DNA from: Candidatus Sericytochromatia bacterium
Lineage (GTDB): Bacteria; Cyanobacteriota; Sericytochromatia; S15B-MN24; UBA4093
Assembly: GCA_036676985.1 (NCBI GenBank)
Contig: JAKFBU010000027.1
Span: forward strand, 1-64,000
Length of the DNA stretch: 64,000 nt
Direction: 5' to 3'
Shown in pieces: positions 1 through 63,100 of the stretch (the stretch's first letter is position 1; every line of letters starts with the position of its first letter). Below the pieces are notes generated by a model, which was given only the letters and a program-made list of their open reading frames with translations, did not search any database and had not been told where the DNA came from. The position numbers and the translations under genes are program-made.

Positions 1-918
1 CGCCATCTCCTCCATGGAGCTCGAGGTCTCCTCGGAAGCCGCCGCCTGGGCCTGGGCCGACTGGGAGAGCTGCTCGGTGCCCGCGCTGATCTGGTCGGCG
101 CCCGCGGCGACGCTGGAGGCCGCGTCGCGTACCTGGCCGATGATCCGGCGCAGGTTCTCGATCATCGAGGTGAAGCTCTTGGCCATGTCACCCAGTTCAT
201 CGTTGGTCGTGACGGCAACCCGCTGGTCCAGGTCGCCCTGCGCGATGCCTTCCGCCGCCTTGGCGATCGCCGCGACGTTGCGCGTGATCTGGCGAGCGAT
301 GAATATGCCGATTCCGAGGGCGACCAGGACGACCAACACGATGACGGCGATGGTGATGCCCAGGGCCACGCCGAAGTCGCTGGCGGCACGCTTGACGGCC
401 GCGGAACCGCCGGTCAGGTTCATCTCTAGCAGGGCTTCGACCTTTTCGTTCAGACGATTGAAGGCCGGGTAGGTCTCCGCCACCATTTCACGATAGGCGC
501 CCGCCTTGTTGCCGGCACGGCTGAGCTTGAGGTCTTTCGCCACGCTGGCCTTGAACGCTTCGTAGGTCGACTGGATCTCGTTGAAGAGCACCCGTTCGTC
601 ATCGTGCACGATGGTCGGTTCGTACAGGGCGAGGTTCGCCTCGAACTTCTCCTGGAACTTCTGAAGCCGCGACTCGACCCCGGCGATCTCCTGCGGGTCG
701 GTTTCGATCAGGTGGCGCAGCATCGAGCGTTGCATGTCGGGGGCGGCCGCGCGCAGATGCCCCACGTACGACGTGGCCACCAGCCAGTTTTCACCGATTT
801 CCTTGGTGGCGCCGTTGACCTTTTGGAGTTGCAGAATCGAGAAGAGGCCCATGAACAGAGCGAGCATGGCCACGGCCATGAATCCACCGATGAGCTTTTG
901 TCCTACCGTGATGCGCAT
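1..918 (-). CDS. Methyl-accepting chemotaxis protein, N-terminal part (runs off the window start)
   Basis: Not in the ORF track. Read manually from ATG 918 after GGAGG: MRITVGQKLIGGF-TM-four-helix sensor-TM-HAMP (IAQGDLDQRV..DELGDMAKSF), then the start of the signalling domain (QAAASEETSSSMEEM). Confidence 0.92.
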   Translation of the reverse strand, partial: MRITVGQKLIGGFMAVAMLALFMGLFSILQLQKVNGATKEIGENWLVATSYVGHLRAAAPDMQRSMLRHLIETDPQEIAGVESRLQKFQEKFEANLALYEPTIVHDDERVLFNEIQSTYEAFKASVAKDLKLSRAGNKAGAYREMVAETYPAFNRLNEKVEALLEMNLTGGSAAVKRAASDFGVALGITIAVIVLVVLVALGIGIFIARQITRNVAAIAKAAEGIAQGDLDQRVAVTTNDELGDMAKSFTSMIENLRRIIGQVRDAASSVAAGADQISAGTEQLSQSAQAQAAASEETSSSMEEMA

Positions 919-1235: not shown

Positions 1236-1253
1236 TTAAGTAAGATGTAAGAA
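1236..1253 (+). promoter_or_regulatory. TTAA-N8-TAAGAA motif, copy 1 (upstream of the coiled-coil orphan)
   Basis: ttaa gtaagatg taagaa; same spacing at 3121 (+) and 12554 (-). Confidence 0.5.
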
Positions 1254-1335
1254 TGAGTTAATCCTGACAAGCAACCGGGTCCTCCGTTGGATAAGCCCCA
1301 TGTCGTAACGGTCTTTGAACAGAAGTGAGGGTGCC

Positions 1336-3069
1336 ATGGCAATCAACGGGATCAACCGTCCGGTCGCAACGACTCGCCCTGCCCAGTCAGCCCCCATGGC
1401 GCAGGCCGCCGCGACGCCGCCGCGCCCGGAGTCCGGACGCGTCGCCGCCAAGACCACCACCGCACCGAAGGACCCCTTTGCCTCCGTCGAGACCTACGTT
1501 CAGGCCGTCGAGGCGACGGAGCAGAGCATCAAGCAGGCCAAGTCCAACAAGGCTGCCGCCGAGAGCCAGCGAGCCCAGGTCGATCAGCAGACGCAGCAGA
1601 AGTTGACGGAAGCCCTCTCTTCGCGCGACGGCAAGCATGCAGAGGCCCTCAAGCCCCTGAACGCCGCCAAGGGAGCTCTCGAGGCAAAGCGCAAGGAGCT
1701 CCAGGCCCCCATCGACGATACGCAGGGCCGCCTCACGCAGGCCCGCTGGGATCTCGAGATCGCGACCCATCCCAACAAGGTCGAGCATGACAAGGCGCGC
1801 TCGGATGCCCATACGGAAGTCGGCCATCGCGAGCAGGCTCTGAATGAGGCCCAGCGCTACCTGAACGAGGTCGACGCGGCCCTCGATCATGCCCGGCGCA
1901 GCCTGGCCACCAACCGCAGTGGGTTGGACCAGACCCGCGCGGATCTGAGCAACACCAACTCCCGCCTCGGCTCCACCCAGTCCAGCCTCAGTTCGGCCCG
2001 CTGGAGTGCCCCGAGCCAGTACGACCTGGATCAGGCCTCCCGCCGGGTCAACGCCGCCGATCAGGAATACCGATATGCCGACAGCGAGGTCGACAGCGCC
2101 ACCCGGGAGGTGCGCAGCCGCCGCTCCGAGCTCGAGCGTCTGCTGTCGGAGAACGACCGCCCGACTCCGCCCTCGGTGACGGATCGTCCGACGCCGCCCT
2201 CGACCGGCGATCGCCCCACCCCACCGTCTGCCGGCGGCCGCCCGACCCCCCCGGGCACCTCCGATCGTCCCACCCCTCCCTCGACCGGTCGCCCCACGCC
2301 GCCCTCCATCGATCCGCCGCACTCGTCCTCCGAGATCAGCCAGGCGCGGACGGCCCTCGGGGAGGCGGAACGCCGGCTCGATCGGGCCGAGGATCGCCTG
2401 TCGGCCGCCCGTAGCGAGCTCGAATCCGCGCGCCGCAGTTACAACGACAAGCGGGCCCGCTTCGATCATGTCGTCGAGCTCGAGGCCGCCGTGCGTTCGC
2501 TCGAGTCGGAGGTCCGGACCTTGAGCCAGAACATCCGGACCTTCGAGCAGAACATCCAGACCATCAGCCGAGACATCGGTGACCTGGAGGGCGATCGCCC
2601 AGGTGCCGTCCAGGGCCGCGACCAGGCCACTGCGAACCTTCAGGCCGCCAAGGCCGAGGCTGCCCGTCTCGATGCGACCCCCTATCAGAACGGCGAACCG
2701 GCAAAGATCAAGACGGCCCAGGGCAAGGTCGACAAGCTCGAGCAGACCCTCAAGGGCCATCAGACGGCCTACACCGAGGGCCTCAAGGCCCCGACTCAGC
2801 GCGTGGCCACCGAGCAGACCACCTACGATCAGACCATGGCGCCCTTCCGCCAGGCCGTCACCGACGCGGACAAGGCCCGTGACGAGGCCCTGAAGTCGGC
2901 GGATCTATCGGTGTCGGGAGCCACTCGACAGCTCCAGTCCGCCAACCAGGAGCTCGAGAAGCTGAAGGACGTGCCCGGCACCAAGAAGCTGAAGTGGAAG
3001 ATGCCCAAGTGGATGGGCGGATCCAGCTTCAATGTCGACGACTTCTGGGCCAAGCGCCCGGCGGTCTGA
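1336..3069 (+). CDS. Hypothetical long coiled-coil protein with a central Pro-rich repeat
   Basis: ATG 1336 after GAGGG; strong codon bias; heptad-rich arms flanking (D/G)RPTPP repeats; followed by a terminator. Confidence 0.85.
   Translation: MAINGINRPVATTRPAQSAPMAQAAATPPRPESGRVAAKTTTAPKDPFASVETYVQAVEATEQSIKQAKSNKAAAESQRAQVDQQTQQKLTEALSSRDGKHAEALKPLNAAKGALEAKRKELQAPIDDTQGRLTQARWDLEIATHPNKVEHDKARSDAHTEVGHREQALNEAQRYLNEVDAALDHARRSLATNRSGLDQTRADLSNTNSRLGSTQSSLSSARWSAPSQYDLDQASRRVNAADQEYRYADSEVDSATREVRSRRSELERLLSENDRPTPPSVTDRPTPPSTGDRPTPPSAGGRPTPPGTSDRPTPPSTGRPTPPSIDPPHSSSEISQARTALGEAERRLDRAEDRLSAARSELESARRSYNDKRARFDHVVELEAAVRSLESEVRTLSQNIRTFEQNIQTISRDIGDLEGDRPGAVQGRDQATANLQAAKAEAARLDATPYQNGEPAKIKTAQGKVDKLEQTLKGHQTAYTEGLKAPTQRVATEQTTYDQTMAPFRQAVTDADKARDEALKSADLSVSGATRQLQSANQELEKLKDVPGTKKLKWKMPKWMGGSSFNVDDFWAKRPAV
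2155..2306 (+). repeat. Six tandem (D/G)RPTPP(S/G) peptide repeats, unit 27-30 nt
   Basis: DRPTPPSVT DRPTPPSTG DRPTPPSAG GRPTPPGTS DRPTPPST GRPTPPS; codons differ between units. Confidence 0.9.
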
Positions 3070-3079
3070 TCCGAGGGAA

Positions 3080-3112
3080 GAGGGACGGCAAACGCCGTCC
3101 CTCGATTCTTTT
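3080..3112 (+). terminator. Intrinsic terminator
   Basis: gagggacggc-aaac-gccgtccctc followed by gattctttt. Confidence 0.75.
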
Positions 3113-3120
3113 AGGCGAGC

Positions 3121-3138
3121 TTAAACCCGGCATAAGAA
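3121..3138 (+). promoter_or_regulatory. TTAA-N8-TAAGAA motif, copy 2
   Basis: ttaa acccggca taagaa, about 60 nt upstream of ATG 3199. Confidence 0.55.
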
Positions 3139-3198
3139 AGTCTGCCCCCCGTCACCTGATAACACCCTAGGTTGTTAAGTGGGTGTTAGGAGTGGGTC

Positions 3199-3774
3199 AT
3201 GTCCCTGACGAGTGCAGTCACCAACGCGACGAAGACGGCGGTGCGGGGCCGCGTGGAGGCCCAGGCGAGCCGGGTGGCGACGCTCGGGGACGAGATCGTC
3301 AAGGCGGGACGGGCGACGCTCGGCCAGGATTCCCTGGTCGTCAGCAAGGCAGCCCAGAAAGCGACCCGTAAGACGGTGAAGGCCGCGAACGGTTCCTTTC
3401 ACCTCTCCACCATCGACCTCAACCGGGAGCTCGGCGCAGCGCGCGAGGCGCTGGCCTTCAAGCGCCTGCGGAGGGAATTCCCCAAGGCCGAAGGTTTCGT
3501 CATCGTCCCGCAGCCCTACTTGCGAGACGCCAAGGGCAACATCCTCAAGGACGCGGTGACCGATGAGGCGCGCCGGATCGATTTCGTGGTCCTGCGCAAG
3601 AAGAGCGTGGTGCAGTCGTTCGAGGTCACGTCCATGACCGCGCCCAAGCTCGAGCAGATCGCCAAGGAGACCCGCATCCGTCTGGATGGCGGGAACTACA
3701 TCCTCAACCCCGCGACCCAGGAACTGGCTTACTTCCCGAAGAAGGTCGAGACCGAGGTCTGGCGTTTCGAGTAA
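3199..3774 (+). CDS. Hypothetical protein with a C-terminal PD-(D/E)XK (restriction-endonuclease-fold) toxin-like domain
   Basis: AGGAG RBS; low-complexity Ala/Thr/Lys N-terminus; GAAREA..YLRDAKG..RRIDFVV..SFEVTS..EQIAKE pattern. Confidence 0.6.
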   Translation: MSLTSAVTNATKTAVRGRVEAQASRVATLGDEIVKAGRATLGQDSLVVSKAAQKATRKTVKAANGSFHLSTIDLNRELGAAREALAFKRLRREFPKAEGFVIVPQPYLRDAKGNILKDAVTDEARRIDFVVLRKKSVVQSFEVTSMTAPKLEQIAKETRIRLDGGNYILNPATQELAYFPKKVETEVWRFE

Positions 3775-3820
3775 GCGCTGGGCGCTTTCGAGCGCCACTC
3801 GATCCGCTCGCCATACCAAT

Positions 3821-3860
3821 AAGGAACCGTTCACCTTTCGACCTAGCTCAAGACGAACGG
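3821..3860 (-). repeat. Short palindromic REP-like element, copy 1
   Basis: Minus strand reads ccgttcgtcttgagctaggtcgaaaggtgaacggttcctt; related to 9397-9459; lies between convergent genes. Confidence 0.6.
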
Positions 3861-3870
3861 ACTCCTCTAC

Positions 3871-4752
3871 CTAGGATGGCTGGGGCGCCCCGTTAAGCCG
3901 CGTGACCACGTACTTCCCGAACACCTTCCGGTCCTTCATCAGCCCCAGATAGTCGTTCCACCCGGTCTTCTCGGCCTTCGTGAACTCGTAGGGCTTGAAC
4001 AGCGGTGCCTGGTTGTACCATGTCAGGCGCAGCCCGTTTTTCAGGAACATGAACGGTGTCCGCCCGTCGAACCGCAGGTTGGACTTCAAGTGGGTCGGCA
4101 AGTTCCCCGACACCGCCGCGAAGCTCTCGGTGATGAGGGCAAGCCCCCCCGGCGCCAGCATGCCGCTCCACTCGCGGATCGCCTTCTCGGGATCCGTGAG
4201 GTGCTCAAGGACCTCGAAGGACAGGAGTACGTCGTACTGCCGCTTGAGACACTCCTCGTAGTCCGTCACCAGGTGAATGCTCTTTCCGAGCTGACCGTAG
4301 TGCTCGAAGCGCTTGGACGCAAACTCGTAGGTCCTGCTCCCCGGGATGTCGAAGTAATCGATGTTCAGCCCGTTGGAGGCCAGGTACAGCGAGTCGTTGC
4401 CCGAGCCGTCGCCGAAGATCAGGAGGCGCAAATCGCCGATGGCGCGCCCCGTCCGCTCGGCATGGAGCTGGATCCGGCCGAGCGCCTGAAAAATCCAGCT
4501 CATGCGCAGCGGCGACGACCAGAAGGCCATGGTCTCGAAGATGAAGCCGTCGCCTTCCTTGTACAGACGCTCCATCGCCTCGTCGAACTGGTGCGGCGTG
4601 ATGCCCGCCTGCTTGCCCTGCTGCACGACGTTGTAGCCGCTCATGAGGGCCTCGAGCCAGAGGCGCTTCTCCACGTCTTCGCGCGGCAGGTCTGTGAACC
4701 GCTGGATCTCGTCGGCAATCTCGGCAAATCCCAGGGGCAGGTTGATGGTCAT
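3871..4752 (-). CDS. Class I SAM-dependent methyltransferase
   Basis: LIFGDGSG motif I variant; YDVLLSFEVLEHL; LAPGG. Confidence 0.8.
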   Translation of the reverse strand: MTINLPLGFAEIADEIQRFTDLPREDVEKRLWLEALMSGYNVVQQGKQAGITPHQFDEAMERLYKEGDGFIFETMAFWSSPLRMSWIFQALGRIQLHAERTGRAIGDLRLLIFGDGSGNDSLYLASNGLNIDYFDIPGSRTYEFASKRFEHYGQLGKSIHLVTDYEECLKRQYDVLLSFEVLEHLTDPEKAIREWSGMLAPGGLALITESFAAVSGNLPTHLKSNLRFDGRTPFMFLKNGLRLTWYNQAPLFKPYEFTKAEKTGWNDYLGLMKDRKVFGKYVVTRLNGAPQPS

Positions 4753-4807
4753 GGGGTCATCCTCTCAAGCGCAAGGGGCTTGTACCCGGCCGGTCGTCGG
4801 GCGGCAC

Positions 4808-7800
4808 CTAACGCCGCGTGCCCATCCTCTCGTCACACCGCTCCAGGTAAACTCCCGCCACCTTGTCCTCCGGGTTCTGCGCGAGGCACGCCTCGAACCG
4901 TCTGCGCGCTTCGGCGTGTTCGCCCGTGGTGAAGAGCTCGAGGCCCTCGCCGAAGACCTGGCGCGTCGCCATCTTGCCCTCGTAGACCTCGGGCGGATCG
5001 CCGTCGAAGACCTCGTACACCGACACGGGCTGGCTCTTGCCCTTGACCGAGACCCGCTCGACGAAGCGGATGGCGAAGTCATCGGGGGCCTTCAGGCTGC
5101 CGAGGGTGTACTCGGAGATGAGCATGGGCGCGCCGTAGGACTTCGTCAGGCCCTCGAGGCGCGCGGCAAGGTTCACGGCGTCACTGATGACCGTGCCTTC
5201 CATCCGGTTCTCCTCGCCGACGGTGCCGAGCATCAGGTCGCCGGTGTTGATGCCGATGCCCACGTCGATGGGGCGGTAGCCGGCCCTCTGGCGCCCCTGG
5301 TTGTATGAGACGAGCTCCCGCTGCATGGTGATGCCCGCCCGCAACGCGTCATCTGCCGAGGTGCTGAACAGGGCCATGATGGAGTCGCCGATGAACTTGT
5401 CGATGAAGCCGTGGTGCTCCCGGATGAGCGGCCCCATGTGCTGCAGGTAGGAGTTGATGAAGTTGAAGTTCTCCTGCGGCGTCATGGACTCCGAGAGCGT
5501 GGTGAACGAGCGGATGTCCGAGAAGAGCACCGACATGTGCTTTTGCACCTGGTCACCGAGGGACACCTCGATGATGCTCTCCTTGTTCAAGAGCTGGATC
5601 AACTCGAAGGGCACGAACCGGGAGGCGGCGTGGTGGAACCTCGAGAGGTTGAGATGGGTCTTGATGCGGCTCAAGAGCTCGTGCTTGGCGATGGGCTTGG
5701 TCAGATAGTCATTGGCACCCGCATCCAAGCCCGCCACCAAGTCCGAGACCCGGTCCTTGGCCGTCAGGAGCAGGATGGGCAGCTCGCTTGCCGGATGGCG
5801 CGCCCGGATGGTCTGGCAGACCTCGTAGCCCGACATCTTGGGCATCATGACGTCCAGGAGCACGATGTCGAAGCGCTGGCCCGACTCCAGGATCTCCAGG
5901 GCCTCGAGTCCGTTCATGGCCTTGGTGACCGAGTAGCGGTTCAACGAGAGGTGGTTCACGAGCACCTGGAGGTTGACCAGCTCGTCATCGACCACCAGGA
6001 TGCGGATCGGATCGTCCGAGGCCGCGGGGACCACCGACGTCAGCACGAGCTCGCCGGTATCGTCGTTGACCCTGCTCACCGGCTGCTGCCGGTCGACCGG
6101 GACGATCGCCAGATCCGAGCTGACGGGTAGCGTGAAGTGGAAGCATGAGCCCCGGCCGACTTCCGACTCGACCCAGATCCTGCCCCCATGCAGCTCCACC
6201 AGTTGCTTGGTGATGCTGAGGCCGAGGCCGGTGCCGCCGTACTGCCGCTCGATGGAGGCGTCCACCTGCTCGAAGGACTGGAAGATGGCGTCGAACTTGT
6301 CATGGGGGATGCCGATGCCCGTGTCGTGCACCGTCACCTGTAAGCGATCGCCCGCCCGTATGGCGGAGACCCGCACCTCGCCCGACTCCGTGAACTTGAC
6401 GGCGTTGCCCACCAGGTTGTGGAGGACCTGGCTGATCCGGTCCTCGTCGCCCTCGGCGGCGGGCAGGTCTTCCGGCACGTCGGCCACCAGGACGATGGGC
6501 TTTCCGGCTGCGAGCGGGCGGGACAGCGTGAGGACCAGATCCACCAGCTGCTTGAGGTCGACGGGCTTGCGCTGCAGCTCGATGTCGCGATTCTTGAGCT
6601 TCGAGAAGTCGAGCAGGTTGTTGACGAGGCTGTTGAGGCGCTTGCCGCTCGAGACGATCATGCCGAGGTTCTGCACCGTGGGCTCCGGCAGCCGTCCGGT
6701 GGCTCCGTCCATCAGCGACTCGGCGATGCCGATGATGCCGTTGAGGGGCGTACGCAGCTCGTGGGAGGTGTTGGCGAGGAACTCGTTCTTGAGTTTGTCC
6801 AGGGACATGAGGCGCTGGGAGAGGGCCTCGATGGTGGCGAACGCCCGCGAGTAGCGCAGGGACAGCAGGAACGACTGGGAGAAGATGAAGGCGACCAGCC
6901 CGTAGGGGACGATGTACGCGCCGGGGATGACCCGGTTGACGATGAGGATGTCGTGGACCACCGTGAGGAAGAGGAGGACGAAGCCCGTCAGCGCGGCCAG
7001 GGAGCCTTCGCGCCGACGGACGACCGCGAGGGCGATCGCGGTGATGATGGCGATTCCCACGACGAGCGTGAACAGCTCGAAGGGCAGCATGGTCCGCTGG
7101 TAGATCTGAAACGGACAGGCCACGACGATGAGGGCGCAGGTGGCCGTGACGACCTGCGACGCGCGGATCAAGAGGCGGGAGGTCTCCTGGGGGAAGATCT
7201 CCCTGAGGTACATCAGGAACGTCGGGACCGCCAGGTAGAAGGTCAGGTACTCGACGCGGTTCACGATGTCCCACGGCAGGCCGGGCACCAGGTTCAGGAT
7301 GTAGTAGTCGTTGGTGAAGAGGCAGCGCACGGCCACGATGAGGCACAGGATGCCGAAGTAGAGCGGCGACTTGTCCGAGCGCCGGAGCGCGAACAGCCCC
7401 AGGTGGTAGAGGCCCATCAGGAGGATGCTGCCGAACAGGAAGAGATCCAGGGCCACGCGACCGATCTGCTCGCCATGGATCTGGCTCTCGGTGCCGAGCC
7501 GCAGGCGCCCGTGAAGGCCGCCCGGCCCCTCGTAAAAGTGCGAGGTCTGGAGGGTGATCGTGAACTCCGGCCCCGTGACCGCGAAGTAGACGGGGCGGGC
7601 GAAGTAGTGCGATCCCTCGGCGGCCGGCTTGGTTTCGAGCCGTCCGGCCGAGTAGACGAGCCGGTCGTCCACCCAGATCCGGCAGCTGGAGGGCAGGTCG
7701 ACCTTGTCGAGGGCGAGGACGCCCGTTTGCCCCTGGGTCTTTACCTTGAGGCGATAGGTCCCGTAGCCATGGGGTTCGGCCGGCATCCCGGGATGCGGCC

Positions 7801-8059
7801 AAGTCCCGGGCACTTGAACCAGTCGGGCTGGCGGCTGGGGGCGCTGGAAGTCCTCGGGGGCCAAGAAGCGCTTCCAATAGAAGCCCCACTCGCCGCCAAG
7901 GTCGATCGGTCCGTGTCGTGCGAGGTCGACGGTGCGTAGATCGAGGGTTCCACCGGTTGGTCGAACGGCTGCATGGCTCGCGCTAGCGCGCTCTCCTGCA
8001 AGTCCGAGGCTCAAGAGGGCCATGAACAGTAGGAAGAGCAGCGTCTTGGCTCGGATCAT
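4808..8059 (-). CDS. Hybrid sensor: 7TM-DISM + histidine kinase + receiver + class III adenylate/guanylate cyclase
   Basis: LGGEWGFYW sugar-binding-like domain, 7 TM, SHELRTPLNGI, NLVGNAVKFT, DTGIGI, GTGLGL, LLDVMMP, FSDIRSFT, DKFIGD, DAVNLAARLE; start chosen at ATG 8059 (GGAG upstream). Confidence 0.92.
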   Translation of the reverse strand: MIRAKTLLFLLFMALLSLGLAGERASASHAAVRPTGGTLDLRTVDLARHGPIDLGGEWGFYWKRFLAPEDFQRPQPPARLVQVPGTWPHPGMPAEPHGYGTYRLKVKTQGQTGVLALDKVDLPSSCRIWVDDRLVYSAGRLETKPAAEGSHYFARPVYFAVTGPEFTITLQTSHFYEGPGGLHGRLRLGTESQIHGEQIGRVALDLFLFGSILLMGLYHLGLFALRRSDKSPLYFGILCLIVAVRCLFTNDYYILNLVPGLPWDIVNRVEYLTFYLAVPTFLMYLREIFPQETSRLLIRASQVVTATCALIVVACPFQIYQRTMLPFELFTLVVGIAIITAIALAVVRRREGSLAALTGFVLLFLTVVHDILIVNRVIPGAYIVPYGLVAFIFSQSFLLSLRYSRAFATIEALSQRLMSLDKLKNEFLANTSHELRTPLNGIIGIAESLMDGATGRLPEPTVQNLGMIVSSGKRLNSLVNNLLDFSKLKNRDIELQRKPVDLKQLVDLVLTLSRPLAAGKPIVLVADVPEDLPAAEGDEDRISQVLHNLVGNAVKFTESGEVRVSAIRAGDRLQVTVHDTGIGIPHDKFDAIFQSFEQVDASIERQYGGTGLGLSITKQLVELHGGRIWVESEVGRGSCFHFTLPVSSDLAIVPVDRQQPVSRVNDDTGELVLTSVVPAASDDPIRILVVDDELVNLQVLVNHLSLNRYSVTKAMNGLEALEILESGQRFDIVLLDVMMPKMSGYEVCQTIRARHPASELPILLLTAKDRVSDLVAGLDAGANDYLTKPIAKHELLSRIKTHLNLSRFHHAASRFVPFELIQLLNKESIIEVSLGDQVQKHMSVLFSDIRSFTTLSESMTPQENFNFINSYLQHMGPLIREHHGFIDKFIGDSIMALFSTSADDALRAGITMQRELVSYNQGRQRAGYRPIDVGIGINTGDLMLGTVGEENRMEGTVISDAVNLAARLEGLTKSYGAPMLISEYTLGSLKAPDDFAIRFVERVSVKGKSQPVSVYEVFDGDPPEVYEGKMATRQVFGEGLELFTTGEHAEARRRFEACLAQNPEDKVAGVYLERCDERMGTRR

Positions 8060-8186
8060 GCAGCGGGGCTCCAGCGTTTGGTCGTTGATGTGGCAGGTAA
8101 ACAACGTATGTTTGCTAATTTTCTAATACCATAAAAGCCTCAGGTCTACCGGGTATAAGAGCCCAGACAAGGGAGGGTGCGCTGAC

Positions 8187-9347
8187 TTGAACATCCGGAA
8201 GGCATTGGTGGGAGGGGCCCTGTGGATCGGCCTCGCGACGGCGGCAGTGGCCCAGCCCGAGCGATCGCCCGCTGTGGTCGCCGACTCCTACGGCCTCATG
8301 ACCCCTCGTTACGTCCGTTGCCTCAGCTTCAAGGGCGCCTTCGGGGAGCTGGACCTCGAGCGCACGCGCGATCGCTTCATGCGCCTCAAGAACATCCAGG
8401 AGGTCGCATTCCGGGAGCTCGGCGGTGAGACGCTCGTCGAGGTCATCGAGAAGACCTCCGTCACGATCACCCCCAAGGTCATTCCCGTCATCTTTCCGGT
8501 CGGCCTGGAGGCCTGGGTCGAGGACTGGCGCATCGGGGACCAGTACTACGATCTCAAGGCCTTTGCCGGCTACAACTGGTCCACGCTCACGCTTTACGAC
8601 CCCGGGCAGATCACGCCCATCCAGCTCGGCGACCTGGTGCACAACTATCCCGAGGCGTCCGTGCGCTGGGGGATGCTGGTCGCGCCCTTCACGCGCTTCT
8701 ACCTGGAGGGCCGGGCCATCGATGCCACCATGCTCGGCGATGCCCAGGTCGCCGCGGCCTTCGGCCCCATGCGCGGTGTGGCCCTGACGGGCGGCACGTT
8801 CCTGCGCTACGACGACGCGGACCACCCGGACATCCCGACCGACGGCAGCCGTGCCAAGCTCTCGTGGCTCGTCGGACCACAGGCGCTCGGCAATCCGGGC
8901 GATTTTCAGCGCGTCGAGGCCTACTACCAGCACTACTGGCCGGTGGGCGATCGCGATTGCCTGGCGTTCGGGGCCCACGGCGGCCTCGGCCTGGGTGACC
9001 TGCCGCTCGCTCAGACCTTCCGGGTCGGCAGCGCGGACTACACGCGCGGCTATGCCGCCAACCGGTTCGTGGGCAACCAGTTCGTCGCCACGAGCCTCGA
9101 GTACCGGCATGTGCTCTTCTCGAACCTATGGAACAGCGGCATCAGCCTGCACGGGGCGGGCTTCATCGACGTGGGTCGCTGCTGGAATGCGGGGGGCGGC
9201 ATCCCATTCCCGCGAGACGTCCGCCCGGCGGCGGGTGTCTATGGCGGCCTGAGCCTCGGCAGCTGGTACATCGGCCGCCTGGAGGCCGCCATGGGCACCG
9301 AGGGACTGGTCGTCCATCTCGGGACAGGCCTGCCTTTTCCCTGGTGA
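8187..9347 (+). CDS. Omp85/BamA-TamA family outer membrane protein (short)
   Basis: TTG start after GGGAGGG; signal peptide; TRGY loop motif, SLEYR, FIDVG; C-terminal aromatic residue. Confidence 0.75.
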   Translation: MNIRKALVGGALWIGLATAAVAQPERSPAVVADSYGLMTPRYVRCLSFKGAFGELDLERTRDRFMRLKNIQEVAFRELGGETLVEVIEKTSVTITPKVIPVIFPVGLEAWVEDWRIGDQYYDLKAFAGYNWSTLTLYDPGQITPIQLGDLVHNYPEASVRWGMLVAPFTRFYLEGRAIDATMLGDAQVAAAFGPMRGVALTGGTFLRYDDADHPDIPTDGSRAKLSWLVGPQALGNPGDFQRVEAYYQHYWPVGDRDCLAFGAHGGLGLGDLPLAQTFRVGSADYTRGYAANRFVGNQFVATSLEYRHVLFSNLWNSGISLHGAGFIDVGRCWNAGGGIPFPRDVRPAAGVYGGLSLGSWYIGRLEAAMGTEGLVVHLGTGLPFPW

Positions 9348-9396
9348 GTCCAAGTCGAACCGCCGATTGTGGATCTCTCTTGAGCCCCACGACGAC

Positions 9397-9459
9397 CCGT
9401 TCACCTTGAGCCCGGTCGAACGCCTGTCCTGAGCCTGTCGAAGGGGCGAACGGTTCCTT
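9397..9459 (+). repeat. Short palindromic REP-like element, copy 2 (duplicated core)
   Basis: ccgttc..ttgagcccggtcgaa..ctgagcctgtcgaa..gaacggttcctt; lies between convergent genes. Confidence 0.6.
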
Positions 9460-9485
9460 TAGTGCATGAACGCCCCTAGCGCCAC

Positions 9486-11645
9486 CTAACCGAGCGCCCG
9501 CTTCCGGCTCAATGACACCCGCCCCCGCTTGTGGTCGATATCCAGGACCTCCACCTCGATCACGTCCCCCACGGACACGACCTCCAGCGGATTCCGGACG
9601 AACCGCTCGGCCAGCTCCGAGACGTGCACCAGCCCATCCTGCTTGACCCCGATGTCCACGAAGGCCCCGAAGTCCACCACGTTTCGCACCGTCCCCGTCA
9701 GGCGCATTCCCGGCTTGAGATCGGCCAGGGACAACACGTCCTGCCGTAGATGCGGCGCCGGCGCCTCGTCCCGAGGGTCCCGCCCCGGCTTCTCGAGCTG
9801 ATCCAGGATGTCTTCGAGAGTCGGCATCCCGATCCCGAGCTCCATGGCCAAGCTCTCGAGGTTCAGGCTCGCGCGCTTACCGGCGATCGCCGGCCCCATC
9901 CCCTTGTCCCGCGGATCCAGCCCGAGACGAGCCAGGAGCTTCCGCGTGGCCTCGTAGGATTCCGGATGGATAGCCGTATTGTCGAGCGGGTCCGTGCCGC
10001 CGGCAATGCGCAGGAAGCCCGCGGCCTGCACGAAGGTGCGATCTCCCAACCCCTTGACCTTCTTGAGCTCCGTGCGGGACCGGAACGGCCCCTCGGACCG
10101 ACGTCGGTCCATGATGGCGCGGGCGACCTTCTTGTTCAGCCCCGACACGTGCGCGAGCAGCTCGGCCGAGGCCGTGTTGAGGTCCACGCCCACGTGGTTG
10201 ACGGCATCCTCCACCACGCCCTCGAGCGCCTTGCCGAGGGCCTTCTGGTCCATGTCGTGCTGGTAGAGTCCTACGCCGATGGCCTGCGGATCGATCTTGA
10301 TGAGCTCGGCCAAGGGGTCCTGCAGCCTCCGGGCGATGGAGATGGTTCCACGCTGGGTGGCATCCAGGTTCGGGAACTCCTCGCGCGCCACCTCGGAGGC
10401 CGAGTAAACGCTGGCACCTGCCTCCGAGACCATGGTGTAGCGCGCCCGCGAGCCCCGGATGGCCTCGGCGACCAGTTGCTCCGTCTCTCGGCTCGCCGTG
10501 CCGTTACCGATGGCGACCACGGTCACGCCATGGCGCTGGATGAGCGATCGCAAGGTCTCGATCGCCTCGGCCCACCGCTTCTGGGGCTCGTGCGGATAGA
10601 TGGCGATCCCCTCGTTCAGGGGCGTACCCGTGGGATCGACCACCACGACCTTGCACCCGGTTCGGAAGCCGGGGTCGATCCCGAGCACCACCTCCCCGCG
10701 CAGGGGAGGCTGCAGCAAGAGAGACTTGAGGTTCGCCGCGAACACCGAAATGGCGTGGCCCTGGGCCTTCTCGGTCAACGCCGCGCGCACGTCGCGCTCG
10801 ATGGCCGGCCCCAGGAGGCGCTTGAGGCCATCCTCCAGGGCCGCCTCGGATTCCTCGCGCCAGCCGGGCGCCCGGCTGCCCCAGCGCTCGCACATCACGC
10901 CGAGGATCCGGTCGGTCGGCAGGTCCACCGACACCTTCAAGACGCCCTCGGCCTCGCCCCGGTCGCAGGCGAGCACCCGGTGCGGCTGCACCTTGGTGAC
11001 GGGCTCCGTGTAGGCGTAGTACTGGGCGAACTTGCCCTGCGGGTCCTCGGCCTTCGGGGCCTTGGAAGCCGTGAGCTGCCCCATCTGCAGCGTCAGGTGG
11101 CGCGCCCGCCCGCGCACCTCCGCGTCCTCGCTCGCAAGCTCGGCCAGGATGTCGCGGGCTCCCGCCAGGGCGTCTTCGGCCGTCGGGACGCCGAGCGGCT
11201 CCGAGATGAAGCGCCGGGCGGCCGCGAGCGGTGCCTCATGGGGCGGCCGGCGGAACATGTCGGCGAGCGGACCCAGCCCCCGCTCGCGGGCCATGGTGGC
11301 GCGGGTGCGGCGCTTGGGCCGATAGGGCAGGTAGAGGTCCTCGAGCACGGACAGCTTGTCCGCGGCGGCGAGCTTCTGTTCCAGCTCGGGCGTCAGGTGG
11401 CCTTGCTCGACGAGTGAGGCCCGGATCTCGGCGCGGCGCTCCTCGAGCTTGCGGCGCTTGGCGAGCAGGTCCTGCAGCTGGCGGAGCTGCACCTCGTCCA
11501 TGCCGCCGGTCACTTCCTTGCGGTAGCGCGCGATGAAGGGAATCGTGTTGCCGTCGTCCAACAGGGCGACGGTGCGGGCCACGGGGCCGGCCGGGACCCG
11601 CAGGTCCTGGGCGAGGGCGGAAAGGAGGTCGGATGTGGTGCTCAT
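9486..11645 (-). CDS. tex: Tex family RNA-binding transcriptional accessory protein
   Basis: TIPFIARYRKE, GIDPGFRTGCK, SEAGASVYSAS, HhH region, C-terminal S1 domain (FGAFVDIG). Confidence 0.97.
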   Translation of the reverse strand: MSTTSDLLSALAQDLRVPAGPVARTVALLDDGNTIPFIARYRKEVTGGMDEVQLRQLQDLLAKRRKLEERRAEIRASLVEQGHLTPELEQKLAAADKLSVLEDLYLPYRPKRRTRATMARERGLGPLADMFRRPPHEAPLAAARRFISEPLGVPTAEDALAGARDILAELASEDAEVRGRARHLTLQMGQLTASKAPKAEDPQGKFAQYYAYTEPVTKVQPHRVLACDRGEAEGVLKVSVDLPTDRILGVMCERWGSRAPGWREESEAALEDGLKRLLGPAIERDVRAALTEKAQGHAISVFAANLKSLLLQPPLRGEVVLGIDPGFRTGCKVVVVDPTGTPLNEGIAIYPHEPQKRWAEAIETLRSLIQRHGVTVVAIGNGTASRETEQLVAEAIRGSRARYTMVSEAGASVYSASEVAREEFPNLDATQRGTISIARRLQDPLAELIKIDPQAIGVGLYQHDMDQKALGKALEGVVEDAVNHVGVDLNTASAELLAHVSGLNKKVARAIMDRRRSEGPFRSRTELKKVKGLGDRTFVQAAGFLRIAGGTDPLDNTAIHPESYEATRKLLARLGLDPRDKGMGPAIAGKRASLNLESLAMELGIGMPTLEDILDQLEKPGRDPRDEAPAPHLRQDVLSLADLKPGMRLTGTVRNVVDFGAFVDIGVKQDGLVHVSELAERFVRNPLEVVSVGDVIEVEVLDIDHKRGRVSLSRKRALG

Positions 11646-11682
11646 GCCCCCATGTTACCGCATGGAGGCGGGCACTGCCCTC

Positions 11683-12486
11683 CTAGGCGAAACCTAGCGC
11701 CTGTCGGGCCTTTGGCGAGATAGCGAACTGGTCGCCGCCCTTGTCGGGGACGAACCGGCGTTTGTTTGCGACCTGCAATGGGGCCGCCGAGGCTGCGGGG
11801 GCGCCCTCCGGCAGGTCGTAGATGCCTGCCAGTCCAATGGTATTGTTGGTGGCGTCCCCGAGGGACTTCACCAGGCCGGCGGCCTTGTGGGCATCGAAGA
11901 ATTTGGCCTGGACGGCATCGCCCACGACCCACGAGGCCACGTTGAGGGCGGCGTCCTCGACCCAGCCCGCCATCTCTTCGCCCTGCTTCCTCGCCTCCTC
12001 CTCCGAGTCGGCCATGGCCCCGCGCACCTCGTGCATCACGATGGCCGCTCCGTCGACGGCGAGACACGCGACGGCGATCGGGGTGGTCAGGGACGCGGCG
12101 GTCATCGCCAGGGCCAGGCTCGCGCCGCCCGTGACCGGGGCGGCGATCACGCCCACGCCGATGGCGAGCACCGCTCCGAGGAACGCGACGCCCGAGGCGA
12201 CCGCCGCCAGGTTGAGGGAGCCGGCGAGGGGATCGTCCTTGATGTCGGCGGCGAGGGACTTGGCGGTCTGGATCGGGTGCACGAGCGGGAAGGCCATCCC
12301 CTTGGCCATCGCGCCGAGCGATTTCAGGGGGTGCTGGGCAAACTCCATGACGTCGGCCGCGATCTGACCGACCAAGGCCTCGTTGGTGGTCTTGAGGTTC
12401 TCGAGCACGCTCGGCTTGGCGTCGGAGGCCGTCGTCTGGCCCGTCGCGCGCGGCTTGGCGATGATGCTGTTGTCGACCTGGATCAT
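11683..12486 (-). CDS. Hypothetical protein with a long hydrophobic hairpin (translocator/pore-former-like)
   Basis: ATG 12486 after GGAGAGGGAG; about 65-aa hydrophobic segment containing APVTGGASLALA; no Sec signal. Confidence 0.7.
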   Translation of the reverse strand: MIQVDNSIIAKPRATGQTTASDAKPSVLENLKTTNEALVGQIAADVMEFAQHPLKSLGAMAKGMAFPLVHPIQTAKSLAADIKDDPLAGSLNLAAVASGVAFLGAVLAIGVGVIAAPVTGGASLALAMTAASLTTPIAVACLAVDGAAIVMHEVRGAMADSEEEARKQGEEMAGWVEDAALNVASWVVGDAVQAKFFDAHKAAGLVKSLGDATNNTIGLAGIYDLPEGAPAASAAPLQVANKRRFVPDKGGDQFAISPKARQALGFA

Positions 12487-12536
12487 GGCACGAACACTCC
12501 CTCTCCTGGTTCTTTTCCCCGAACGGCAAGCAAGTT

Positions 12537-12554
12537 TTCTTATGGGCGCATTAA
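12537..12554 (-). promoter_or_regulatory. TTAA-N8-TAAGAA motif, copy 3
   Basis: Minus strand ttaa tgcgccca taagaa, about 50 nt upstream of ATG 12486. Confidence 0.55.
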
Positions 12555-12626: not shown

Positions 12627-13616
12627 ATGCGGATCTGTCTGGGGGGGGATGTCATGCTGGGGCGCGGGGTGGACGAGTGGGTCGTGGCCGCCGGGCGCTC
12701 CCCCTTTGCGGAGCTGTCCGCCTACTGGCATGGCATGGACCTGGTCGCCGTCAACCTCGAGTGCGCCCTCACGGACCGCGACACCTGGTACCAGGGTCCC
12801 CGGAAGGCCTTCTACTTCCGGGGCCGCCCGGAGGCCGCTCGATTGCTGGCGGAGGCCGGCGTCGACGTCGTGACGCTGGCGAACAACCATGCCCTGGACG
12901 CGGGCGAGCCAGGGCTTGCCGACACGCTGGACCTGCTGGACCACCGCGGCATCGCCCATGCGGGGGCGGGGCCCGACCTCGCGCATGCCTCACGGCCGGC
13001 GGTGGTCGGGGCCGGTGGCCTGCGCGTGGCCTTCCTGTCCTATTGCGACCACCAGGAGGACTTTGCCGCCGGCCCCAACCGTCCCGGCATCCGCTACCTC
13101 GATCTCACCACTCCCGAACGGGCGCTGCCGGTGCTGGCGGCGGACGTCCGCGCCGCCCGCGCCGAGGCGGACCTCGTCATCGTGGCCTTTCACTGGCAGG
13201 CCAACTGGGCGCCGGTGGTCGAGCCCCCCTTTCGCCGGGTGGGCCGTCACTGCCTCCGCGCCGGTGCCAGCGTCGTCTGGGGGCACAGCCCGCACCACTT
13301 CCAGGGCGTCGAGTGGGCCCCCGGCGGCGTGATCCTGTATTCGACCGGTGATCTCGTCGACGACTACGCCGTAGATCCGGTCTACCGGAACGACCGCCAG
13401 CTCCTGTTCACTTTGGAGCTCGATAAGACGGGCGTGACCCGGGTCGTCGCCCGTCCGATCGAGCTCCGCTGGGATCAGACGCGCTTTGCGGGGCCGGAGG
13501 CCGCCGAGTGGATCCGGGTGACCTTCGGCCGCTATTGCGCCGCGCTCGGGACGCGCGTCATGCCTCAGGGCGACCACCTGCTCGTACCGGCGCCCGCGGC
13601 GGGGGCGGCCCGCTGA
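12627..13616 (+). CDS. CapA family metallophosphatase (PGA_cap)
   Basis: GDVMLGR, VNLEC, LANNHALD, FHW, GHSPH, YSTGD. Confidence 0.92.
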   Translation: MRICLGGDVMLGRGVDEWVVAAGRSPFAELSAYWHGMDLVAVNLECALTDRDTWYQGPRKAFYFRGRPEAARLLAEAGVDVVTLANNHALDAGEPGLADTLDLLDHRGIAHAGAGPDLAHASRPAVVGAGGLRVAFLSYCDHQEDFAAGPNRPGIRYLDLTTPERALPVLAADVRAARAEADLVIVAFHWQANWAPVVEPPFRRVGRHCLRAGASVVWGHSPHHFQGVEWAPGGVILYSTGDLVDDYAVDPVYRNDRQLLFTLELDKTGVTRVVARPIELRWDQTRFAGPEAAEWIRVTFGRYCAALGTRVMPQGDHLLVPAPAAGAAR

Positions 13617-62936: not shown

Positions 62937-63100
62937 GGAGGTCCTGTCATGGCGGCCGCGCCGTGCGACGAGGTGGGCCGTCGTCGGCGGCTACCGAGCA
63001 AATTCTTAACTATGCGATAGCGAATAGATTAGACATTGTTAATATATACTGGAGTCTAAAAGGTTGCACGTCAACTGTTGGGAAGGCCGGAGCACAAGAC

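Follow-up and report, generated by a model that had tools for sequence, protein, structure and literature searches.

Three orphan genes (genes 1 to 3) in the first 64,000 nt of contig JAKFBU010000027.1 (C27), the stretch of DNA analysed here and referred to as the window, are each preceded by the short motif TTAA-N8-TAAGAA. The genome, that of a Candidatus Sericytochromatia bacterium (assembly GCA_036676985.1), is 4.68 Mb in size, with 79 contigs, a G+C content of 67% and a rated completeness of 100%. The motif, which an initial annotation of the window had proposed to mark a dispersed set of co-regulated, exported effectors, is real and non-random and, on sequence grounds, is the upstream half of a longer, promoter-type element in which tandem TTAA repeats precede the block CGATAAC. 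We consider it probable, at roughly 0.6, that this element represents a lineage-specific promoter class, with a group-3 sigma factor reading CGATAAC as a -10 and an OmpR/PhoB-type activator reading the repeats. The class is predicted to drive roughly 130-190 transcription units, around 30% of them encoding lipoproteins, and is conserved in a group of non-photosynthetic cyanobacterial relatives.

A composite element of tandem repeats and a -10-like block

Throughout, the control was either the pattern or the genome read backwards, which retains local composition. The three copies lie where they had been reported, at 1236-1253 and 3121-3138 on the plus strand and at 12537-12554 on the minus strand, and their distances to the respective start codons (83, 61 and 51 nt for copies 1, 2 and 3) agree with those given earlier. 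Dinucleotide shuffling of the window, repeated 100 times, generated none. Genome-wide there are 24 copies, against a single occurrence of the backwards pattern, and the spacer is sharply preferred: N8 accounts for the 24, and N6, N7, N9 and N10 for 3, 1, 1 and 0, respectively. Random scatter over intergenic regions, the outcome named by the initial annotation as fatal to its proposal, is contradicted by these backwards controls, by the exact spacing and by the orientation relative to gene starts. A longer pattern that had been noticed in copies 2 and 3 is indeed common to both, but its TGC-N3-CCGT part falls in the unconserved spacer of the class, and the CCGT part is not retained in the same-genus orthologue of gene 3; this additional likeness is probably coincidental.

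The full element was found by aligning the 24 motif copies and then 92 copies of TTAA-N8-TAAG (control 14). In this alignment, TTAA cores recur every 11 bp and CGATAA lies 18-19 nt past TAAGAA, such that the element comprises three head-to-tail 11 bp direct repeats, aanCTTAACCn, followed after 18-19 unconserved bases by CGATAAC. Boxes 1 and 2 have C before and CC after the TTAA core, and the third, promoter-proximal repeat is usually (T/A)TAAG(A/C)AA, often TAAGAAA, followed by a weak nTT. The spacings are strict: TTAA-N7-TTAA occurs 101 times in the genome, compared to 1-18 times at other spacings between N0 and N17 and 41 times at N18; TAAGAA-N18-CGATAA occurs nine times and the N19 form six times, with none at N16, N17 or N20-22 and none in the controls; and TAAG-N20/21-CGATA occurs 27 times, compared to six in the control.

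A two-block matrix was built from these sites and re-estimated once, with the TTAA cores at positions 5, 16 and 27 and CGATAAC starting from position 52 or 53. Over 242 sites, the counts in the -10 block are C154 G178 A205 T179 A184 A171 C116, and the preceding GC is unconserved; when the -10 is set at -12 to -7, the TTAA cores begin near -60, -49 and -38. The matrix finds 188 sites of at least 18 bits in the genome and 12 in its reversed counterpart, with the corresponding figures being 143 and 7 at 20 bits, 94 and 1 at 25 bits, and 71 and 0 at 30 bits. Merging of overlaps leaves 158 sites of at least 18 bits.

Position relative to genes

In relation to our own gene call, which comprises 4170 genes and spans 84% of the genome, 146 of the 158 merged sites are intergenic, 11 have their -10 inside a called gene and one lies at a contig end. 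The intergenic sites face a gene start in 127 cases and a gene end in 19 (87% compared to a background of 55%; binomial p = 8e-21), and the median distance from the centre of CGATAAC to the start codon is 44 nt. By contrast, the promoter of a ribosomal-protein operon (rplU) is of the ordinary type, TTGACG-N17-TAAGAT; CGATAAC is therefore not the housekeeping-type -10 represented there, in keeping with the earlier suggestion of a non-housekeeping promoter.

Genes downstream of the element

The regulon was taken as the 129 called genes having a site of at least 18 bits within 250 nt upstream, with the background being 4041 genes. Lipoprotein-like N-termini are over-represented (39/129 vs 384/4041; odds ratio 4.1, p = 1e-10), hydrophobic Sec or transmembrane N-termini are depleted (3/129 vs 894/4041; odds ratio 0.08, p = 2.5e-10), and 87 of the 129 proteins have no signal by simple rules. 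A Pfam scan covered 100 downstream proteins, consisting of 98 from the top-100 list and two lower-scoring ones swapped in. It yielded six PLDc_2 matches; nine LysM (two with Glucosaminidase, two with Peptidase_C39_2, and one each with Amidase_2, M23 and a borderline GH19), two Amidase_2 in all and one PG_binding_1; peptidases of families S8 (three), C11 (two), C1 (one), C39_2 (three in all), C92 (one) and M14 (one); four Exo_endo_phos, one GDPD and one BNR_2; and four EF-hand, three CarboxypepD_reg and one each of Kelch, NHL and fatty-acid hydroxylase. No match at the limits used was found for 46 of the 100, and no flagellar or chemotaxis family scored above threshold in any of the 100. The impression of a set rich in signal-less orphans and degradative enzymes is borne out, with gene 2, a probable restriction-endonuclease fold, as one instance.

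The statement that no copy precedes a housekeeping gene is nearly right, as the exceptions among the 100 downstream genes scanned are a doubtful SpoU methylase and EF-Tu. Both are probably not real targets, and the '-10' of the EF-Tu site lies inside the coding start. At both copies of tuf, encoding EF-Tu, boxes of the TTAA-N7-TTAA/TTAT type immediately precede the ribosome-binding site, 25-35 nt before the start codon, with no CGATAAC, which means that boxes are not confined to the promoter class.

Copies in the window and their genes

Copy 2 ends 35 nt before the ATG of gene 2 (Table 1). The N-terminal ~70 residues of the encoded protein are predicted with low confidence and contain GQDSLVVS; its C-terminal ~120 residues, in an AlphaFold model made from a six-sequence alignment, have block-mean pLDDT values of at least 90 from about residue 81 (84 for residues 71-80). 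Across gene 2 and its homologues (six sequences), RRxDF...EVT...K...Q..KE is invariant, which provides the conserved acidic (D, E) and lysine residues characteristic of such nucleases as PD-(D/E)xK enzymes. Foldseek returned nothing at E ≤ 0.001, and its weak matches (E 0.0099-0.7) are mostly REase-fold nucleases, including R2 endonuclease, BstEII, Bax1, NucC, Hjc, Cas4 and TnsA; likewise, the language-model look-alikes below 0.9 include Tox-REase families. The C-terminal domain is thus a probable restriction-endonuclease-like (PD-(D/E)xK) nuclease, an assignment that is reasonable rather than established. Of 40 relatives, five were found to have a homologue; these belong to two other families, and each of the five homologues has an upstream site of 28.7-31.7 bits.

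Copy 3 ends 25 nt before the ATG of gene 3. Upstream of the same-genus orthologue, TTAA-N7-ATAAGAAA is kept and the -10 is equally poor (14.3 bits). The central hydrophobic stretch of the gene 3 product probably forms two membrane helices; searches gave no informative match, all atlas matches being below 0.9. Homologues were found in 11 of 27 relatives, the weaker matches sitting in open frames that reach 576 aa, roughly double the length of gene 3. The domain spanning residues ~25-200 recurs at 24-30% identity in open frames of 428-576 aa, and relatives may carry it as a module joined to further domains. Sites at the homologous loci score 14.3, 17.5, 24.6 and 26.4 bits in relatives G001, G010, G021 and G027, with none of at least 12 bits at the other seven. 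Retention of the motif upstream of orthologues, which had been named as a check, therefore holds throughout for gene 2 and in part for gene 3 (4 of 11 loci at 14 bits or above).

Copy 1 is not a canonical member of the class on the plus strand. A minus-strand site overlaps its boxes and faces a divergent receptor-like gene (918..1); in the orthologous intergenic region of G002, there is no plus-strand site of at least 10 bits, and a 36-bit site on the minus strand belongs to the divergent gene. Both genomes have a TTAA-N7-(T/G)TAA pair 43 nt, by hand count, before GGATA(A/G), which lies at 1289-1295 in the window. Only coiled-coil Pfam matches, all sub-threshold, were obtained for gene 1, and a single full-length orthologue (G002, 49% identity) was found among five genomes of the family. 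The coiled coil is broken at 2160-2310 of the window by six (D)RPTPPS repeats in tandem, and matches to gene 1 in G001, G007 and G008 are confined to this region.

The N-termini quoted earlier for all three proteins are correct, and none has a hydrophobic signal. Judged by these upstream regions, gene 2 would be a strong member of the regulon and gene 3 a weak one, with gene 1 unproven; the proposed co-regulation of dispersed genes accordingly extends to the former two and not clearly to gene 1. A fourth site in the window precedes the gene for a 316 aa membrane protein, with 41 nt between its -10 and the start codon.

Table 1. Coordinates of the sites, genes and related features; positions are those of the window unless a contig (C) or the genome of a relative (G) is given
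Feature	Position	Strand	Details
Copy 1	1236..1253	+	TTAA-N7-GTAAGAA boxes, no -10 at class spacing; 12.7 bits, within noise
Site overlapping the boxes of copy 1	1255 down to 1196	-	-10-like CGATCG; 24.1 bits
Gene 1	1336..3069	+	577 aa; no signal peptide; long coiled coil
Copy 2, full promoter	3110..3163	+	49.1 bits; one of the ten top-scoring merged sites (158 in all)
Copy 2, box 1	3110-3113	+	TTTA
Copy 2, box 2	3121-3124	+	TTAA
Copy 2, box 3	3132-3139	+	ATAAGAAA
Copy 2, -10-like	3157-3163	+	TGATAAC
Gene 2	3199..3774	+	191 aa; no signal peptide, no Pfam match
Gene 3	11683..12486	-	267 aa; no signal peptide, no Pfam match
Copy 3, weak member	12512..12554	-	20.8 bits; no box 1
Copy 3, box 2	12554-12551	-	TTAA
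Copy 3, box 3	12543-12536	-	ATAAGAAA
Copy 3, poor -10	12518-12512	-	GGAAAAG
Fourth window site	63001..63059	+	19.5 bits; near noise floor
Open frames with gene 3 domain (examples)	G004:C35, G008:C19, G010:C74, G027:C116		
Boxes upstream of tuf	C29:~12680-12760 and C38:~250-330		boxes without -10
Signal-less proteins bearing N-terminal motifs (examples)	C39:183528, C61:10656, C64:25924, C39:110649, window 3199		
Sigma-28-type promoters	C13:~330-420 and ~2850-2900 (minus strand)		flagellin, TAAAGTTCGGCGCAGGACGGCCGAAA; neighbouring 792 aa gene, TAAAGTCGCTCAGGAGGGTGCCGATA

Candidate factors reading the element

Of the 13 sigma-70-family proteins of this genome, three belong to group 1/2, three are ECF factors and seven belong to group 3, the last consisting of one that passes the FliA/WhiG cut-off, one that is FliA-like and below it, and five that are SigB/F/G-like. 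Only two of the 13 genes have a site, namely that of the SigF-like factor at C19:60273 (20.6 bits) and one ECF gene (18.1 bits). The C19 factor is 73-98% identical across the order, and its gene has a site of at least 18 bits 80-190 nt upstream in 10 of 21 genomes, distributed over three clades, compared to 1/21 on the opposite strand; upstream of its paralogue, there is a site in none of 20 genomes. This site is taken as a pointer because the Synechocystis group-3 factor SigF is autoregulated (PMC2532724), and C19:60273 is the best candidate to which it leads, weak as the pointer is. A phylogenetic profile of sigma factor against motif was tried and dropped as indecisive: genus g7 has neither strict hits nor, in a search with the C19 factor, a third SigF-like match (E ≤ 1e-25), yet has 3-4 motif copies, and its sister genera have CGATAC. 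As for the ECF gene (C23:171194), it is divergent, within C23:170544-171400, from a 164 aa orphan whose site scores 48.4 bits and is among the ten best.

The repeats match the cyanobacterial Pho box, and hence point to a regulator of OmpR/PhoB type. The best PhoB-like regulator, at C41:129131-129820, falls just below the TIGR02154 cut-off (275.2 vs 296.2 bits), and its gene has neither boxes upstream nor a recognisable Pst or PhoR-type neighbourhood; a response regulator of the genome passes the NCBIfam equivalog cut-off for cyanobacterial RpaB, a point in favour of the organism's placement among relatives of the cyanobacteria. A further, atypical OmpR-family regulator gene (C38:207411-208166), lacking any NCBIfam match at E 1e-55, ends at a 37.8-bit site, which is predicted to drive the same-strand gene for an EF-hand protein (C38:206667-207293).

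In the mechanism proposed, RNA polymerase carrying an alternative, SigB/F/G-like group-3 sigma factor (C19:60273) would read CGATAAC, and the winged helices of an OmpR/PhoB response regulator, or less likely the polymerase itself, would occupy the tandem repeats, as PhoB and SphR do at Pho boxes. The class would switch on phospholipase D enzymes, LysM hydrolases, amidases, M23 peptidases, subtilases, clostripains, EEP nucleases or phosphatases, GDPD and many orphans. Its role would likely be that of a switchable surface or extracellular degradative programme, for either lysing other cells or scavenging polymers.

Conservation among relatives

TTAA-N8-TAAGAA exceeds its control in each of 27 relatives belonging to families f1 to f5. 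Examples are G010 (26 against 1), G021 (20 against 0), G017 (20 against 1) and G016 (11 against 0), and the excess is weak in genus g7 (3-4 against 0-1) and in G026 (5 against 5). In the 13 relatives from families f6 and f7, the control mostly equals or exceeds the motif count, and thus nothing can be said for these. Similarly, TAAG-N20/21-CGATAA is found 20 times in G021 (control 1), 22 times in G023 (control 3) and 11 times in G001 (control 0), with none in the four genomes of genus g7, the sister genera of which have CGATAC instead of CGATAA. Over families f1 to f5, most of the 27 relatives show an excess of the strict patterns; in taxonomic terms, the excess of both is seen within the order and in one additional family of the class. 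A family-wide fixed membership of the regulon was considered and rejected, based on the loci of phospholipase D (PLD) homologues described below.

N-terminal motifs and export

The regulon includes wall-acting enzymes that lack a signal peptide, namely two Amidase_2 proteins, both LysM-glucosaminidases and the LysM-C39-like proteins, and the start codons of these signal-less wall enzymes are constrained by the position of the promoter. Among the regulon proteins, two short N-terminal motifs are over-represented, each found post hoc and therefore offered as leads only: [AS]GGG within the first 80 residues (11/129 vs 36/4041; odds ratio 10, p = 1e-7), a fuller form of which is P-x-V-x-(A/S)-G-G-G, and D-[SKRQVT]-[LVFI]-x-[LIVF]-[SG] within the first 100 (14/129 vs 41/4041; odds ratio 11.9, p = 5e-10). 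The latter sits mostly 31-51 residues from the start of the protein, and in residues 100-200 it occurs in one regulon and 29 background proteins. GQDSLVVS in gene 2 is a motif of this type, and lG-x-D-...-l-(S/G) is kept in three of five gene 2 homologues, and partially in the other two, despite a divergent N-terminus. Similar N-termini are also present on about 12 genes for which no site was detected, for instance C1:79078, C39:32889 and C53:21263. When the N-terminal 110 residues of the 129 regulon proteins were compared all against all by BLAST, no shared domain emerged, only small clusters following lipoprotein signals, LysM or PLD domains; any common signal must therefore be a short linear motif.

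A flagellar apparatus, the absence of which would have counted against the original proposal, is present. The genome has two full FHIPEP genes, each adjoining a FliA-type sigma gene, and a partial one, along with three flagellin-family and nine rod or hook matches; in a second flagellar cluster, all sites score below 18 bits. There are also six secretin genes, and the type VI sheath (PF05943) was not found in the genome. FHIPEP occurs in 27 of 28 genomes, and the exception, G001 (87% complete), has seven rod or hook matches, such that a phylogenetic profile cannot discriminate. The idea of a set defined by type III export fails, since ~30% of its members are ordinary lipoproteins with Sec-type lipoboxes; type III export of the signal-less members is neither refuted nor supported.

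Separately, a stand-alone 299 aa protein matching the cytoplasmic part of FlhA (FHIPEP 322-536, 96 bits) is encoded at C19:67952-68848 on the minus strand, 7 kb from the SigF-like sigma gene C19:60273. Such an FlhA fragment and sigma gene are paired on the same contig, 3-10 kb apart, in at least seven relatives (G004, G007, G009, G011, G017, G023 and G025), and in family f3 the number of FHIPEP matches per genome rises to as many as 11, with fragments of the cytoplasmic domain making up many of these. It is conceivable, if quite unlikely, that the order runs a dedicated bacteriolytic or predatory programme of more than 100 genes under this one promoter class, in which peptidoglycan hydrolases, phospholipases, proteases and nuclease toxins without Sec/Tat signals use a new short N-terminal export signal and a non-classical exporter. 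If this were so, the signal would consist of D-x-L-x-L-S preceded by ~35 disordered residues, and/or of P-x-V-x-A-G-G-G, and the exporter possibly a flagellum-derived machine or the expanded paralogues of the FlhA cytoplasmic domain.

Alternative explanations

Several points weigh against a promoter class read by a group-3 sigma factor and an OmpR/PhoB-type activator. The matrix was trained on the same genome that it was used to scan, and the gene call is crude. At the loci of PLD homologues in relatives, a site of at least 18 bits is found at 5 of 26 (leaving out a 27th with too little upstream DNA), the same frequency as on the opposite strand; likewise, homologues of gene 3 have sites of at least 18 bits at 2 of 11 loci, and of at least 14 bits at 4 of 11, and membership of the regulon thus appears to be evolutionarily fluid. 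The distance of 18-19 nt between repeats and -10 exceeds the 10 bp reported for E. coli Pho boxes (PMC1906773). The choice of sigma factor draws solely on putative autoregulation in three clades, and 11 of 21 genomes have no site at the C19-type sigma gene; none of the ten OmpR-family genes scanned (of 13 matches) has the element upstream, and no regulator was tied to the boxes. Finally, 48 of the genome's 101 TTAA-N7-TTAA pairs, all of them intergenic, belong to no full site, so the boxes are also active, or at least present, apart from this -10; such pairs fit a box-binding protein that also acts elsewhere.

These solitary pairs, the tuf boxes lacking a -10 and the much higher A/T content of intergenic than of coding DNA in this genome might all be accounted for without a dedicated factor, by phased A/T tracts (resembling UP elements or curved DNA) or by A/T-rich intergenic composition, with the grouping of genes being incidental. 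This is exceedingly improbable, and chance or composition was rejected as largely refuted by the reversed-genome controls, which keep composition and give 1 against 24 motif copies and 12 against 188 sites. Moreover, the spacing is exact to the base, 87% of sites rather than 55% are oriented to gene starts, the element is kept before orthologues with diverged surroundings, and the flanks of the repeat are asymmetric (C before the core, CC after), as expected of a direct repeat and not of a mere A/T tract. Sigma-28 (FliA/SigD) promoters have the consensus TAAA-N15-GCCGATAA, and CGATAA forms the core of that generally known -10; in our own alignment, a weak gAAAgTT within and after box 3, if taken as the -35, would give the geometry TAAAGTTT-N11-GCCGATAA. 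A FliA-type promoter driving flagellar or type III substrates, their unstructured N-termini being export signals, would further suit the dispersed, late or surface-type functions of the downstream genes, the two full FHIPEP export-gate genes with a second, FliA-like sigma beside one of them, the 87 of 129 products that lack a signal and yet include peptidoglycan hydrolases needing to act outside the cytoplasm, and the roughly ten-fold enrichment of two N-terminal motifs, the second being kept in most homologues of gene 2. However, this is very unlikely, as the flagellin gene on C13 has its own TAAAGTT-N11-GCCGAAAC without TTAA boxes. Together with its neighbour, it represents the canonical TAAAGT-N11/12-GCCGA(A/T)A type, of which the genome has two to four examples depending on the pattern used; the FliA regulon proper thus seems to be a distinct one. 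At the sigma-28 -35 position, the class has (G/C)(A/C)AAnTT, with the T of TAAA unconserved, and its conserved TTAA lies 4 nt upstream of where TAAA would be; conservation is strongest in the three TTAA repeats, a feature that sigma-28 promoters do not have. In addition, none of the 100 downstream genes is flagellar or chemotactic, the second flagellar cluster has no qualifying site, neither FliA-type sigma gene is preceded by the element, 30% of members are Sec-dependent lipoproteins, the distribution of FHIPEP (27/28 genomes) is uninformative, and the N-termini share short motifs and no domain.

Among the closest known systems is the Pho box of SphR, the PhoB orthologue of Synechocystis PCC 6803, which consists of at least three tandem direct 8 bp repeats of CTTAACCT with 3 bp linkers, sits upstream of the -10 in place of a -35 and is known from three operons (PMC1906773). 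The unit CTTAACCT, direct orientation, number (at least three) and 8+3 bp layout with its 11 bp period all recur here, raising the alternative of a phosphate-starvation regulon, in which a PhoB/SphR-type regulator would bind the three Pho boxes, recruiting the housekeeping polymerase, and phospholipids, nucleic acids and cell walls would be the sources from which the enzymes scavenge phosphate. The regulon does contain six phospholipase D-family enzymes, four EEP nucleases or phosphatases and a glycerophosphodiester phosphodiesterase, and the regulator at C41:129131 is PhoB-like (275 bits against a cut-off of 296), although its gene has neither the expected boxes nor recognisable Pst/PhoR-type neighbours. 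Nevertheless, a phosphate-starvation regulon is unlikely. Although the genome is rated 100% complete, searches recovered neither PstS (PF12849) nor PhoU nor alkaline phosphatase (PF00245), and PhoD was marginal (19 bits), so boxes cannot be shown at hallmark operons; the -10 is the strongly conserved CGATAAC and not a TAnnnT of housekeeping type; and most of the downstream genes, encoding lipoproteins, proteases, LysM hydrolases and orphans, have no link to phosphate. With ~150 sites, the class also far exceeds the three operons described for SphR. The same phosphate-gene searches were positive in 13, 13 and 8 of 14 control genomes, the standard high-affinity system being unusually lacking here.

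Other known systems share individual features with the class. CtrA, an OmpR-family regulator of a large dispersed regulon in alphaproteobacteria, binds TTAA-N7-TTAAC boxes, which have the same half-site and 7 bp spacer; they differ in phylum, in having two repeats rather than three, in their flanks and in the -10, which is distinct here, and the likeness is one of sites alone. Stringent, non-housekeeping promoters are also characteristic of cyanobacterial group-3 sigma regulons. The core recognised by Synechocystis SigF is [C/T]AGGC...GGGT[A/G][A/G][A/G], with TAGGC at -32 and GGTAA at -12 (PMC2532724), which TAAG(A/C)A...CGATAAC resembles in outline only; SigF1 of Synechococcus elongatus controls the exoproteome (PMC11345509); and SigJ of Nostoc punctiforme directly controls ~100 promoters with a conserved extended -10, the J-Box GGGaAtacT (PMC6495340). 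Unlike these, the present class has phased TTAA repeats, and lies upstream of genes for degradative enzymes and lipoproteins rather than for pili, motility and biofilm formation.

Implications

A literature search at the level of listings and abstracts found no paper on promoters, regulons or predation in Sericytochromatia. To our knowledge, the non-photosynthetic lineages that are sister to the cyanobacteria include no genetic model, and almost nothing has been established about how they live or regulate their genes. The class described here provides a list of 130 or more genes as a regulon, predicting which of its many proteins of unknown function act together, and offers a putative pairing of a conserved group-3 sigma factor with an activator site of Pho-box type. 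The element is also of use in annotation, as it pins down start codons and transcription units in genomes in which nearly half of the genes concerned belong to no family. New export routes have in the past been discovered from material of the sort seen here, namely signal-less wall hydrolases and phospholipases with common N-terminal motifs. The content of the regulon also strongly hints at a heavy investment by these heterotrophs in the lysis or digestion of other cells.

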